Assembly: GCA_963836435.1 (NCBI GenBank)
Contig: CAWIJI010000011.1
Coordinates: forward strand, 9,678 to 73,677
Source of the DNA: an uncultured Acidobacteriota bacterium
GTDB lineage: Bacteria > Acidobacteriota > Terriglobia > 20CM-2-55-15
Direction: 5' to 3'
Length of the DNA: 64,000 nt
Part shown: piece by piece, positions 40,516 to 48,138 of the stretch
Layout: every line of letters starts with the position of its first letter
Numbering within the stretch: the first letter of the stretch is position 1
The notes under the pieces: generated by a model
Told to the model about the DNA's origin: nothing
Databases searched by the model: none
What the model saw: only the letters and a program-made list of their open reading frames with translations
Made by a program: the position numbers and the translations under genes

Positions 40516-40588
40516 GGGCCGCTAGCTCAATTGGCAGAGCAACTGACTCTTAATCAGTAGGTTGAAGGTTCGATTCCTTCGCGGCTCA
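40516..40588 (+). tRNA. tRNA-Lys (anticodon CTT)
   Basis: GGGCCGCTAGCTCAATTGGCAGAGCAACTGACTCTTAATCAGTAGGTTGAAGGTTCGATTCCTTCGCGGCTCA. Cloverleaf with anticodon loop CTCTTAA. It marks the start of a lower-GC island. Confidence 0.85.
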
Positions 40589-40614
40589 TACACTTAAAGA
40601 TCAGACTGGGTTTC

Positions 40615-40635
40615 GGGGTACCACTGGGGTACCCC
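40615..40635 (+). other. perfect palindromic hairpin GGGGTACCactgGGGTACCCC 27 nt after tRNA-Lys
   Basis: Seen directly. May act as a terminator for the tRNA or lie at the boundary of the downstream island. Confidence 0.4.
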
Positions 40636-40677
40636 GTGGCCGCTATTGGGATTGAAGCGCGGCAGAGTAAGGCATTT

Positions 40678-41073
40678 CTATCTGACGATGAGTTCAGCGG
40701 CATTTGCGAGTTCTGTCGCAAGCTTCAACCAGCTGCCCTGATCCTGAGGAGGCCAATTTACGATGTTTCCGTGGCGTTCATGGGGGCGCGTATCGGGCTC
40801 GACAGTCAGTCCACGATTGAAAACTTCAGATGCTGAAAGATCGGCCCGTGCAATTATCGGTTTTCCGCGATGAGGAGCGACGTAGTCATCTCCGAGTTTC
40901 CAAATCTCCCCGTCACCTAGTTCATTTGTCCGATAGATAGATAGACTGAGATTCGCATGCGGAGGCGTGAAAGCGTTGAACTTCACTCGCTTTTTGACGG
41001 CAGAATACTTCGACCTCTCGTCCAAATATCTTGTGAGGCGCTCTTCAGCTCCGACGCTGCGCAGATCGATCAT
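40678..41073 (-). CDS. hypothetical protein (third gene of island operon)
   Basis: 131-aa ORF, 6 nt downstream of the previous gene. Has a ...PHERHGNIVNWPP motif. No confident family call. Confidence 0.45.
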   Translation of the reverse strand: MIDLRSVGAEERLTRYLDERSKYSAVKKRVKFNAFTPPHANLSLSIYRTNELGDGEIWKLGDDYVAPHRGKPIIARADLSASEVFNRGLTVEPDTRPHERHGNIVNWPPQDQGSWLKLATELANAAELIVR

Positions 41074-41079
41074 CTCGGG

Positions 41080-44646: not shown

Positions 44647-45456
44647 ACTTACCTCCCCGCTCCATGACACGTCGGCAAACCGCTTCCGTTGTGGTTCTCC
44701 GCTCCCGTGCGCTCCGCCGCAAATACACCTTGCACCATGCCTGCACTCCATCACGAGAGGATTTGTTCGACCAAAACTCGGAGCGCGGCTGCGGCTTGCC
44801 CCGTTTGTGGCAGCGGGAATTCGTGCACACCTTCTTGAAGGCCGAACTCCATGCCGGGTGTAATTGTTGTGGAACAGGCTCTTGCACTGGACTGGACGGA
44901 GCAGAAGCGGTCGTGTGAATGCCTAACCACGAACCACGCGCTACAAAAACCACAGGGCCGAAACGCCACGTGGACAAGCTTTGGCGCCGGTTGTTCAGCG
45001 TCGACTAATTTTGTCCTGCGACGACAATTAGAATCCTGGTCGTGGTTTGTTATTAATCGTCGCCGGGCTTGTGAGTAACTGTGGAAAACGCAGCAGGGTT
45101 TTCCAAACAGCGTTGGAAATCCCCAACGGAAGCCTTCGGCAATTTTTTCTTGATGATTTCCACACGCTGCTTGAAAAAGCCTACGCAAAAACCGCTTCGG
45201 CTTTTTCACAGTTACACACAGGCCCGGCGGCGGATAAATAAACAACTCACGGGTTACTTTTAAAATGAGTTGCCGACATCCCCCAAAGTTACATTTTCAA
45301 ATGAATTGATAGAGTCCGGCCCTTTTGCGTGTGTGGGGAATTTTGGGGGAAGCATCCGCCTTCAGGAAGCCCGTGAGTGTGCCTTCCACGAAATCGTTAT
45401 CGGGAACGTCAGGACCGTAACGACATCGATAAAGAGAGTCCACCGTGAAGCGCACT

Positions 45457-47134
45457 CTAGGAGCCTGTAGGGGATAGATTTCTAGATTTCGATCAAAAAC
45501 GGGACCAGTGTTGACGAGCGGGCAGGTAAAAGACGAAGGCATGACCAAATGCTTTGTTGATGACGAAATCGATCAGATATTGATGATGCCGCCGTCGCTG
45601 CACGATTGGCTCCCGGAAGACCATTTGGCGCGATTCGTGGCGGATTTGGTGCCGAGCCTGGATCTGTCGGCGTTCTACGCTTCCTATGAAGAGAAAGATG
45701 GACGAGGCAATGCTGCCTATCATCCGGTGATGATGGTGCGGTTGCTGGTCTATGGCTACTGCATCGGAGTCGTGAGTTCGCGGCAGATCGAGAAACGGAC
45801 ATACGAGGATGTGGCGTTCCGGTATTTGAGCGCGGATGAACATCCGCACTACACGACGATCAACGAATTTCGGAAACGGCATTTGAAAGCATTGGAGGGA
45901 TTGTTCCTGCAGGTGCTGGAGCTATGTCAGGCAGCGGGTCTGGTGAAGATGGGGCATGTGGCCCTGGACGGGACGAAGAAGCAGGCGAACGCCAGCAAGC
46001 ACAAGGCGATGAGCTATGGGCGGATGGGAGAAGCGGAAGAAAGGCTCAGAGCGCAGGTGAAGGAACTGCTCGATCGCGCTGAAGCCGTCGACGCGGCCGA
46101 AGATGAAATGGAGCGGCAAGGTTACAGCGACAAGTTGCCTGCGGAATTGGCGCGGCGGGAGAGCCGGTTGAAAAAAATCGCCGAGGCGAAGGCGGCGCTG
46201 GAAGCGGAAGCGCGGCGGAAAGCGGAAGAGAAGAAAGCTCAAGCCGAGGCGCGAATTGCCGAGCGGCAGCAGCAGGAGCAGGAGACGGGAAAGAAGATCG
46301 GCGGGCGGGCGCCGCAGATTCCCGATCCGGAGCAGGCCAAGCCAGAGGATTGCGCGCAACGCAATTTCACCGATCCTGACAGCCGGATTATGGTCGACGG
46401 AGCGAACAAAGGCAGCTTCGTACAAGCCTACAACGCGCAGATCGCGGTGGATGCCGAAGCGCAAATCATCGTTGCCGCCGACGTCACGCAGGAAGTCAAC
46501 GACAAGCAGCAATTGGCGCCGATGTTCGAGCAGGTCGAAAAGAATACAGGAGCCAAACCAGTGGCGGGCAGCGCCGATAATGGTTATTGGGCTCCAGAAC
46601 AAATTGCCGACAAGCACGTCGAAGGCATCGATCTCCACATAGCCACCGGGCGGGATAAGCATGGAGCATCGGAGCAAACCGCGCCGTCAGCGGAGTCCGC
46701 AAAAGCGGCGACAGCTCTGGAGCAGATGAAGCAGAAACTGCAAACGGAGGCGGGGCGCGCCATTTACAAAATGCGCAAGGCGATCGTCGAACCAGTGTTT
46801 GGCCAGATCAAGGAATGCCGTCATTTTCGACGCTTCAGTCTTCGAGGCTTGGAAAACGTCAGAGCGGAGTGGAAACTTGTCTGCGCGACACACAACCTTC
46901 TGAAGTTATTTCGATCGGGACGCGGATTTCAGGCTGCGGCGGCATGAAGAGGATGCAGGAACCTCAGAAAACATGATGAGACCGAACTTCTCTCGCCAGT
47001 CTCCCCGTGTTCTCGTGCGTCAAGCCTCAAACGCAATGTCGACGGTTCCCGAACGGCGACCTGCGGAATTTTTCGACACGGAAAATTTCGAATTTTGGGA
47101 ACGGCGACCTGCCTTATCCCCTACAGGCTCCTAG
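45457..47134 (+). mobile_element. IS1182-like insertion sequence (about 1.68 kb) with perfect 20-bp terminal inverted repeats
   Basis: Left end CTAGGAGCCTGTAGGGGATA at 45457-45476. Right end TATCCCCTACAGGCTCCTAG at 47115-47134 is its exact reverse complement. Single transposase ORF inside. Confidence 0.85.
45541..46947 (+). CDS. IS1182-family (IS5-superfamily) DDE transposase
   Basis: N-terminal ...LPEDHLARFV... region, a central coiled-coil and a DDE_Tnp_1-like C-terminal half. About 468 aa from MTKCFVDDEI. Confidence 0.8.
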   Translation: MTKCFVDDEIDQILMMPPSLHDWLPEDHLARFVADLVPSLDLSAFYASYEEKDGRGNAAYHPVMMVRLLVYGYCIGVVSSRQIEKRTYEDVAFRYLSADEHPHYTTINEFRKRHLKALEGLFLQVLELCQAAGLVKMGHVALDGTKKQANASKHKAMSYGRMGEAEERLRAQVKELLDRAEAVDAAEDEMERQGYSDKLPAELARRESRLKKIAEAKAALEAEARRKAEEKKAQAEARIAERQQQEQETGKKIGGRAPQIPDPEQAKPEDCAQRNFTDPDSRIMVDGANKGSFVQAYNAQIAVDAEAQIIVAADVTQEVNDKQQLAPMFEQVEKNTGAKPVAGSADNGYWAPEQIADKHVEGIDLHIATGRDKHGASEQTAPSAESAKAATALEQMKQKLQTEAGRAIYKMRKAIVEPVFGQIKECRHFRRFSLRGLENVRAEWKLVCATHNLLKLFRSGRGFQAAAA

Positions 47135-47226
47135 GTCTAGGAACGACGCGGCTCTGACAGCTTGACTGCTCGGGCGCCCGATTCGCTTATATACCGCTCC
47201 GTCAATGGCATACCATTCTGAGTGCC

Positions 47227-48051
47227 ATGTACAGCCAGCTCGCCGCGCTCTCCAGTGACCACGTTGTGCTTGATCTGGGCAGTGGCAGTAGCAGCTTTCA
47301 CTACGAAACATGTCCCGCAAAGATCATTGCGATCGACGTATCGTCTGACAGAACGCCCGTCATGCTTTCTGAACGCGTGGCCTTCATTCATGCAAATGCA
47401 GCTTCTCTCCCACTGGCCGACAAATCAGCGGACGTCGTTATCTCTCACCACACGTTGGAGCATTTCGCCGACTACAGGGGGGTACTGTCGGAAATATATC
47501 GAGTCTTGAGACCTGACGGTTGGTTATGGATTGCGGTGCCAAACGGTTATGGTTTCGACGATTTTCTTTACCGGTGGGTGTTCTCGGGGGGTGGGCATGT
47601 CAACCGGTTCAGGCATGATGCACTCGTTACCGAAGTGGAGGAAGTAACGCGACTTCGGTTGCGCGATGAGTGCGCGTTGTTCAGCGGTTTCGTTTATCTG
47701 AAAAAGCCGACGGCGCGCGAGCTGCAACACTACCCGCCATCAGCCAGGCCTCTTGGAAATATTCCGGACGGTTTTTCCCACTTTGGCTCTCTCGCGTTGA
47801 ACGGTGTTACACGCATTGCCGACAGACTGTTTGGGTCGCGTCTCAGCCAATATGGCTGGGGATTGTTATTTTCGAATGCCGGATTGAATGCCTCGGGGCT
47901 TCCTTCGTACTTCAATGTTTGCCGCAGCTGTGGGTCCGGGCTCTCCTATCGCTTGCTGAAACGGAAAACTCTCTTTGGAGTCGGTCTTTATCATTGTCCT
48001 TACTGCAAAGTGCCCAACGTTTGTGTCGTTCCACCGGATTCTTGTGAATAA
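47227..48051 (+). CDS. class I SAM-dependent methyltransferase (Methyltransf_11-like)
   Basis: Motif I VLDLGSGSSSF, ...VISHHTLEHF..., LRPDGWLWIAVPNG. Confidence 0.8.
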   Translation: MYSQLAALSSDHVVLDLGSGSSSFHYETCPAKIIAIDVSSDRTPVMLSERVAFIHANAASLPLADKSADVVISHHTLEHFADYRGVLSEIYRVLRPDGWLWIAVPNGYGFDDFLYRWVFSGGGHVNRFRHDALVTEVEEVTRLRLRDECALFSGFVYLKKPTARELQHYPPSARPLGNIPDGFSHFGSLALNGVTRIADRLFGSRLSQYGWGLLFSNAGLNASGLPSYFNVCRSCGSGLSYRLLKRKTLFGVGLYHCPYCKVPNVCVVPPDSCE

Positions 48052-48138
48052 CTGCGATGAAAATGCTGAGCTCGTTATGGCGGGCGTAACGAGAATTTTG
48101 TTCCCGCAAGGCATAACGGGCCAGGCGCCGAAGGCGCC

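Follow-up and report, generated by a model that had tools for sequence, protein, structure and literature searches.

What kind of DNA begins directly behind the tRNA-Lys(CTT) gene of this uncultured Acidobacteriota bacterium, and does its position mean that it entered the genome there? The window, i.e., the whole stretch of 64,000 nucleotides analysed (contig CAWIJI010000011.1 of assembly GCA_963836435.1, positions 9,678 to 73,677), carries the tRNA gene at 40516-40588 on the plus strand, where it was found by ARAGORN and scored 71 bits against Rfam RF00005; the gene forms the left edge of a compositionally atypical segment. The initial annotation of the window had proposed an island of defence or mobile type and had implied that the 3' end of the tRNA served as its integration site. 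Based on the results of this study, the region from 40589 to about 50200 is best read as a horizontally acquired mosaic accessory island with cargo of defence or toxin type, which abuts tRNA-Lys and is not one self-mobile element, and a probability of about 0.6 is given to this reading. The earlier proposal therefore holds with regard to the foreign composition, the abutment on the tRNA, the presence of an insertion sequence (IS) and the scattered cassettes, whereas site-specific integration at the tRNA was not supported.

The shift in composition is real and far beyond chance, because GC content, tetranucleotide usage and GC content at third codon positions (GC3) all set the tract apart. GC is about 0.59-0.60 before the 3' end of the tRNA and 0.50-0.55 just past it. 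Over 40589-50188 it is 0.536, while 176 non-overlapping pieces of the same length (9.6 kb) ranged from 0.586 to 0.610 (mean 0.597, standard deviation 0.007), which places the tract about 9 standard deviations under every other piece of its size. In tetranucleotide usage the tract diverged most from the remainder of the window at 41-44 kb, with a maximum of 0.107-0.112 where the background is 0.02-0.045; the divergence stayed at 0.056 or more up to 50 kb and was back to 0.03 at 50-52 kb. The 11 genes of the tract had a mean GC3 of 0.571 (range 0.515-0.632) and the eight genes of the flanks a mean of 0.699 (range 0.655-0.739), the two ranges being disjoint (Mann-Whitney U=0, p=2.6e-5). The change of composition and coding style right after the tRNA, which the initial annotation had described and for which it had suggested a comparison of GC and codon statistics with the flanks, was thus confirmed by both kinds of statistics.

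The right edge, on the other hand, lies further away than had been supposed. The segment had been said to end at about 48.1 kb, with ordinary high-GC genes from about 48.4 kb onwards; in fact the low-GC tract extends to about 50.2 kb, and both a membrane protein ORF (open reading frame; GC3 0.567) and a nucleotidyltransferase gene (GC3 0.576) beyond the supposed border are still atypical. Host-like composition is regained at about 50.2-50.6 kb, and an outer-membrane-protein-like ORF (50590-51303, GC3 0.655) and a gene for an FtsX-type permease (51361-53898, GC3 0.739) are host-like. At the left edge the first cargo gene after the tRNA has its stop codon at 40678, and within 40-51.5 kb Rfam recognised nothing besides tRNA-Lys. 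Between the 3' end of the tRNA and the stop of this convergent gene, which codes for 131 aa, lies a perfect 9-bp hairpin with a 5-nt loop (CGGGGTACC / GGTACCCCG, 40614-40636). It was read off the sequence, having been missed by a terminator scan since a T-run is absent, and it may be a bidirectional terminator.

The tract is broken up by a host-type composite repeat (48186-48455, GC 0.604) that resembles repetitive extragenic palindromic (REP) elements. Its core is the palindrome GCACCCCGGCAGGGGTGC, with 17 strand-matches observed against 0.13 expected; further copies start at 29099, 54189/54218, 58803 and 60117/60146. The members of the family occupy 29099-29116, 48333-48379, 54189-54235, 58803-58859 and 60117-60163. 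The palindromes often form an inverted pair 29 nt apart, about 150-200 bp surrounding the copies can be aligned, and additional palindromes are held within the composite repeat. The family looks like a genome-specific REP or an element similar to miniature inverted-repeat transposable elements. As it occurs on both flanks and also inside the tract, both flanks must belong to one genome; the host repeat inside the tract therefore implies either that the tract has been resident for long or that it is made up of two patches, one at 40589-48185 and the other from 48456 to about 50200. A second, smaller dip in GC (0.531) was observed at 59001-60000 around an ORF of 270 aa (59075-59887), and this dip is flanked by the REP-like repeats at 58.8 and 60.1 kb.

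Integration at the tRNA found no support. The last 22 nt of the tRNA, and likewise the last 16 nt, matched only the tRNA itself when up to three mismatches were allowed over the whole 64 kb, so that the direct repeat of the tRNA 3' end, for which a search near 47-48.5 kb had been suggested, was not found. A repeat scan of 40.3-52 kb revealed no tRNA-derived direct repeat, and an inverted repeat of the tRNA 3' end was likewise not found. No integrase or recombinase domain was recognised with Pfam and NCBIfam in the ORFs or in 10 leftover ORFs of 40.5-51.4 kb, the sole recombination enzyme in the tract being the DDE transposase of an IS1182-family element. Moreover, the longest unassigned gap is about 480 bp, and there is therefore no room for an integrase gene. 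Phage structural or replication genes are not present in the tract either. Since neither an integrase nor an attachment-site (att) repeat was found, the island would be fixed cargo today.

It would then be a patchwork of small modules, each of which occurs alone elsewhere: a cassette centred on a TIGR04255 gene, two HEPN-like genes with an orphan ORF, a SWIM zinc-finger gene with a zinc-ribbon-like ORF, the IS1182 element, a methyltransferase gene and, past the REP-like cluster, a sixth module, in which a truncated gene for a membrane glycosyltransferase occurs together with one for a DUF6036 nucleotidyltransferase. Such a patchwork could have arisen by successive insertions at a permissive site by the tRNA, or it could be the remnant after loss of an integration module. 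Relatives of the cargo are scattered over unrelated phyla, plasmids and prophage ends.

The cassette behind the tRNA consists of three genes on the minus strand. Component A (41589-42335), with 248 aa from the ATG at 42335 and an alternative TTG start at 42353, matched the NCBIfam family TIGR04255 with 120.1 bits (cut-off 30) over profile positions 2-252 of 252. Component B (41080-41592, 170 aa), in which the C-terminal half 'WDGxG ... P.I ... G ... EW' is conserved, and component C (40678-41073, 131 aa), the third gene, are uncharacterised. The stop of A lies over the start of B with an overlap of 4 nt and a gap of 6 nt separates B from C, in agreement with the short overlapping ORFs that had been noted here. 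The same order and tight spacing were found again in 12 further loci, which represent 10 distinct sequence contexts. The cassette of L082/L083 has identities of 73, 69 and 78% in A, B and C, respectively, and other copies are in L097/L098, L099/L100 and a Roseateles chromosome (L101). It also occurs in six IMG/VR proviral contigs (L183-L188) plus L190, in several of them close to the contig end; the IMG/VR contigs with cassette relatives near their ends are 36-40 kb long. The record of the P2-like Ralstonia phage YO139_2 (Peduoviridae) has the cassette 0.4 kb before it ends. In the Crinalium plasmid NC_019754.1, A and B are recognisable and the third gene fails to align. A word-indexed search of 5.8 billion proteins found only three homologues of component B, and diverged counterparts were detected by tblastn at all cassette loci.

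The neighbours of the cassette include toxin-antitoxin genes, which are of the RHH-PIN type in L082 and of the NTP_transf_2 and SoFic-like types in L097. The neighbourhoods differ in each distinct context, which argues that the three-gene unit is an autonomous, mobile cassette. One further copy (L084, 8804-12830 of ENA ERZ25039556 contig_83413) lies 0.36 kb from a tRNA-Ser(TGA) gene and is decayed, with A frameshifted and an ISAzo13-type transposase gene between B and C; two more transposase genes are close by in this IS-rich region.

No function is given for the cassette in PADLOC or NCBIfam, and a full-text literature search for TIGR04255 returned no paper. The AlphaFold2 model of component A (predicted local distance difference test score, pLDDT, 92.5) shows two beta-alpha-beta(n)-alpha halves, and a fold like that of glutamine synthetase and guanidino kinases was assigned to it. 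Among 40 TIGR04255 members E14, D18, R134, N137, D204 and K231, among others, were invariant (248-aa numbering), which is compatible with these residues forming an active site. Component A could possibly be a nucleotide-using enzyme or sensor, as would be suggested by this fold together with the invariant charged residues. The genes of the cassette are translationally coupled, and for this reason A, B and C may act as one complex. Component C had no match in Pfam, NCBIfam, PHROG or PDB, and sequence searches of solved structures with TIGR04255, component C and both HEPN-like families gave nothing useful, the best match being 9hnh_A with E 0.0016 over 40 residues.

Components B and C could be distant relatives of PDC-M32, a two-gene candidate in PADLOC that was found by guilt-by-embedding; the PDC candidates are embedded in BREX, DISARM and type I restriction-modification loci (bioRxiv 10.1101/2024.01.29.577857). 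Five of six members of the component B family matched positions ~270-334 of the 375 positions of PDC-M32A (best E 2.1e-5), i.e., its C-terminal part. Two of six members of the component C family matched PDC-M32B over nearly its full length (best E 0.0038; E 0.028 for the window protein), and the 123 positions of that profile agree in size with the 123-131 aa of component C. However, there are three genes here and two in PDC-M32, the similarity to PDC-M32A covers ~65 of 375 positions, and component A is unmatched. The cassette was also considered as a split PDC-M32, and this was rejected as none of 40 TIGR04255 members matched any of the PADLOC models.

The second module lies on the plus strand and comprises HEPN-like protein A (HEPN-A, 42776-43261, 161 aa), which belongs to a widespread family of ~153 aa, an orphan ORF of 110 aa (43361-43693) and HEPN-like protein B (HEPN-B, 43705-44154, 149 aa). 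At least 819 homologues of HEPN-A were found, with 50-73% identity across distant phyla (Gemmataceae, Gallionella, Omnitrophica), and none of them has a Pfam domain. They stand solitary in unrelated contexts, including those of Gemmataceae and Gallionella. Salmonella phage PSP3, which is P2-like, carries one homologue (gp38) at its right end, within 0.4 kb of the genome end. In sets of 20 and 50 sequences R95, N96 and H100 (R-N-x-L-x-H) as well as Q27 and E30 were invariant. HEPN-A matched phrog_12893 (E 1.3e-20), and only one of 50 members of its family matched a Pfam HEPN model (E 0.041). The AlphaFold2 model of HEPN-A is all-helical (pLDDT 73), and fold searches with it were non-specific and not separable from generic helical bundles.

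An exhaustive search recovered 255 representatives of the HEPN-B family at E<=0.001. In 40 sequences Q18, E21, R84 and H89 were invariant, the motif again being R-N-x-L-x-H. Sub-threshold matches to HEPN_RiboL-PSP were obtained for 20 of 148 homologues (best E 4.9e-4), and others to HEPN_MAE_28990, Csm6 HEPN, HEPN_Cthe2314, Abi_2, AbiU2, LA2681 and pEK499_p136. The two window proteins themselves matched nothing in Pfam. From these results HEPN-B is accepted as a predicted member of the HEPN superfamily, and HEPN-A is considered HEPN-like by its R-N-x-x-x-H motif and its link to HEPN-B. This link is seen at the level of profiles, which are in register from the Q..E of the first helix to the RN..H (hhalign probability 68%, E 4.8e-5). 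The initial annotation had described two HEPN-like paralogs; the HEPN-like character stood, as R-N-x-x-x-H is invariant in both, and recent paralogy did not, as BLASTP detected no similarity between the two proteins (E=0.2) and they belong to separate families. HEPN-A and HEPN-B thus appear to be two independent HEPN-like modules that are distant homologues and lie side by side by chance.

They were never adjacent in the other loci compared. The 110-aa ORF, which is also called as a gene in an independent assembly (L081), had no family match and no counterpart beside HEPN-A or HEPN-B homologues elsewhere, and a conserved operon of HEPN-A, the 110-aa ORF and HEPN-B was rejected because the trio was not found together elsewhere. 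The two proteins resemble HEPN RNases (RiboL-PSP-HEPN, MAE_28990-like, AbiU2, Csm6 HEPN and the toxins paired with minimal nucleotidyltransferases, HEPN-MNT) in being small and predicted to be all-helical, with Arg-x4-His and a conserved acidic/polar pair in the first helix. They differ from these RNases in that the window proteins are below the Pfam HEPN thresholds, HEPN-A is practically without HEPN matches and an MNT is not adjacent. No MNT partner was found beside the HEPN-like genes, the 110-aa ORF and the SWIM gene being without a nucleotidyltransferase domain, and the sole nucleotidyltransferase gene (DUF6036) is 5.4 kb away. In six Gemmataceae contigs from different samples (L085-L090, 4001-6460) the HEPN-A homologue is followed by genes for a DUF4145 protein, a 112-aa protein and a DUF7689 protein, which may be another small accessory cluster. 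Stretches that match the HEPN-B family are repeated in tandem in two long proteins, 7 times in P0228 (2388 aa) and 5 times in P0267 (883 aa), and both are multi-HEPN repeat proteins.

The SWIM-like zinc-finger ORF (44215-44646, minus strand; 143 aa from an ATG after GGAGG) was verified by Pfam SWIM with 23.4 bits against a cut-off of 19.6, and the signature C-S-C...C-K-H is seen in its translation. It had a weak match to phrog_17897, a scan for viral relatives found nothing, and a 143-aa gene is also called in L081. Upstream of it and overlapping it is a possible degenerate zinc-ribbon ORF of 113 aa (44636-44977, minus strand), which was unmatched in Pfam and in PHROG weakly resembled the zinc-ribbon portions of phage endonuclease VII (E 2.9e-4) and of a Lar-like protein (E 3.3e-3). 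One of its cysteine pairs is degenerate, and the coding status of 44636-44977 is uncertain, the gene caller having picked the opposite strand in L081.

The IS1182-family element (45457-47134, plus strand, 1678 bp) is intact, as had been claimed. Its transposase gene (45508-46947) matched NF033551 with 378.6 bits (cut-off 270) and codes for DUF772 and DDE domains, and the terminal inverted repeats of 20 nt (45457-45476 and 47115-47134) are perfect. CTAG is present at both ends; either the target was duplicated over these 4 bp or CTAG forms the tips of the inverted repeats, and as it is palindromic, the two cases are indistinguishable. Insertion of the element into a gene was considered and rejected, since in-silico excision restored no ORF; its position is intergenic.

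A class I S-adenosylmethionine-dependent methyltransferase is encoded at 47227-48051 on the plus strand (Methyltransf_11, PF08241, E 2.5e-18) and has a C-terminal CxxC...CxxC. Its best Pfam matches were Methyltransf_11, 25 and 31, it is of UbiE-BioC-like class, and the NCBIfam matches were partial, below cut-off and to small-molecule methyltransferases only. It matched no DNA methylase family, reaching only E 0.016 with MTase_II of PADLOC, and no endonuclease gene is adjacent. The orphan methyltransferase of the initial annotation is therefore a methyltransferase, and by its family not a DNA methylase.

Past the REP-like cluster, an ORF of 239 aa (48456-49175, plus strand) resembles membrane glycosyltransferases of the PMT_2 or glycosyltransferase-39 type (23.5 bits, below the cut-off of 26.1; profile positions 2-143 of 160). 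Enzymes of the PMT_2 type usually have about 500 aa, and the ORF is considered truncated because its length is about half of that. The DUF6036-type nucleotidyltransferase (49585-50037, minus strand, 150 aa) scored 23.6 bits in Pfam, exactly at the cut-off, and had weak AbiEii matches in PADLOC (E 0.002-0.03). Its start is overlapped by 59 nt, in another frame, by an ORF of 63 aa (49979-50170, minus strand). Either this ORF is a small gene that partners the nucleotidyltransferase gene, or it is the N-terminal portion of a longer protein whose frame has shifted.

The cargo would most likely serve in phage defence or addiction. A defence or toxin role is suggested because of the HEPN motif, the matches to PDC-M32A and PDC-M32B, and the position of relatives at the ends of prophages and alongside toxin-antitoxin genes. 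The HEPN-like proteins would probably be RNases that use the Arg and His of R-N-x-x-x-H, and they might act as growth-arresting or abortive-infection effectors. Anti-phage and toxin-antitoxin genes reportedly cluster in variable parts of genomes, where they form defence islands. The segment is similar to such islands in its small unrelated cassettes packed together, HEPN-type proteins, weakly AbiEii-like nucleotidyltransferase, mobile element and patchy homologues. It is dissimilar in that PADLOC and NCBIfam recognise no validated defence system here, with weak matches to an untested candidate only.

Several points weigh against reading the segment as an acquired island of defence or toxin type. 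The functions of all its cargo genes are predicted ones. The PADLOC matches are weak, covering at best 65 of 375 positions of PDC-M32A with E 2.1e-5 and reaching E 0.004-0.03 for PDC-M32B, TIGR04255 itself matched no PADLOC model in any of the 40 members, and the PDC systems are untested candidates (bioRxiv 10.1101/2024.01.29.577857). No recognisable antitoxin, such as an MNT, stands beside either HEPN-like gene. Moreover, the case for a horizontal origin, which seems probable, is made by composition and scattered homologues rather than by a demonstrated empty site.

Among the other explanations, the one that survives best is that erosion has left of one integrative element, whether a genomic island targeting tRNA genes or a P2-like prophage, only the cargo end. 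This element would have entered at the 3' end of tRNA-Lys by a tyrosine integrase, and its integrase, attR and most genes would later have been lost by deletion and IS activity. Islands and integrative elements of this kind, such as the P4-type islands and many prophages, are associated with tRNA genes and use tyrosine integrases. The segment is like them in its position at a tRNA 3' end, with the composition breaking exactly there, and in its atypical GC and codon usage, accessory cargo and IS. The copy of the cassette in L084 is also beside a tRNA gene (tRNA-Ser), and the IS and the truncated gene could be taken as signs of ongoing decay. Loci of variable cargo, either 'moron' or defence genes, are said to lie at the ends of P2-like phage genomes, and relatives of the cassette and of HEPN-A do lie no more than 0.4 kb from the extreme ends of YO139_2 and PSP3, respectively. 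The cassette relatives near the ends of the 36-40-kb IMG/VR contigs and the weak PHROG matches of the SWIM protein and the zinc-ribbon ORF point in the same direction.

However, an integrase fragment was found neither in the ORFs nor in the leftover ORFs, and no tRNA-derived repeat was found even with 16 nt and three mismatches. Phage structural, replication and integration genes are not present in the segment, which is only ~9.6 kb long and is divided by the host REP-like cluster, and its modules occur independently in other genomes. Descent from one such element is therefore considered rather unlikely, and the mosaic island is preferred to it.

A comparison with relatives bears on whether the stretch might instead be native. 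The upstream neighbour of the tRNA (39423-40469, on the strand opposite to the tRNA) codes for epoxyqueuosine reductase QueG by similarity (595 tblastn relatives). In a genome scan the closest QueG proteins were those of Candidatus Sulfopaludibacter SbA3 (68%) and a metagenome-assembled genome of Terriglobia (61%), the best identities in metagenome contigs being 64-67%. An exact look-up of QueG returned none, and an exact-match scan with the spacer between QueG and the tRNA returned 0 matches. By tblastx the window shared nothing with the two closest loci except QueG and, at 56 kb, one distant match. In the two closest relatives, L001 (480-4045) and L104 (9-3717), tRNA-Lys(CTT) is followed by a small ORF, then by a gene for a PolX/PHP-type polymerase and then by QueG, and in the window the spacer between tRNA and QueG is 47 nt and no polX gene is nearby. 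The contigs of these two relatives stop 480 nt and 8 nt, respectively, past tRNA-Lys.

A native origin, with the genes of the stretch being specific to the lineage and evolving fast or expressed weakly and its low GC resulting from relaxed selection, would be consistent with the host REP-like element inside the tract and with the lack of an att repeat, an integrase and a demonstrated empty site. Differences of ~6 points of GC are also possible within a genome, as in the dip to 0.53 at 59-60 kb. On the other hand, the tract is ~9 standard deviations under the other pieces of its size, its GC3 range is disjoint from that of the flanks, and it contains an intact IS. HEPN-A is 50-73% identical to proteins of unrelated phyla, and the cassette is 69-78% identical in an unrelated context, yet the adjacent housekeeping gene QueG reaches no more than 68% in the same collections. 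A native origin is for these reasons improbable.

A short-read contig of the same strain from an independent assembly (L081) is 100% identical to 40556-45485 of the window (4930 nt); one of its ends falls 33 nt into the tRNA and the other 29 nt into the IS. These lengths would fit an assembly graph with its forks precisely at the 3' end of the tRNA and at the tip of the IS, the evidence being weak because the conserved tRNA sequence is common to members of the community. An assembly or binning artefact, in which a contig of foreign origin became attached to the host chromosome at the conserved tRNA or at the IS, both of which would be ambiguous junctions in a de Bruijn graph if the k-mer reading of these breaks is right, is very improbable, given that the REP-like family has members on the left flank (29.1 kb), within the tract (48.3 kb) and on the right flank (54-60 kb), that both flanks are equal in composition, that the source contig spans 602,695 bp, and that breaks of short-read graphs are expected at tRNAs and multi-copy IS without chimerism.

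A more specific proposal can be put forward only tentatively and is itself doubtful: the TIGR04255 cassette would be an uncharacterised three-component anti-phage or addiction system of plasmids, P2-like prophage ends and chromosomal islands, with component A as its enzyme or sensor, and the HEPN-A and HEPN-B families would be new standalone RNase effectors.

As an island the tract adds little, foreign cargo by a tRNA gene with an IS and without an integrase being common. It is of value because it draws attention to three unannotated and widely scattered families that resemble mobile defence or toxin modules, i.e., the conserved cassette centred on TIGR04255 and the two HEPN-like families with strictly conserved residues of catalytic type. 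To our knowledge, a glutamine-synthetase/guanidino-kinase-like fold is not known in any characterised defence system. The cassette is the part worth following, being conserved and apparently mobile, with an enzyme-like large subunit and a distant link to a defence candidate. If it protects against phage, it would be a new system, and a function would be provided for TIGR04255 and for the related PDC-M32.

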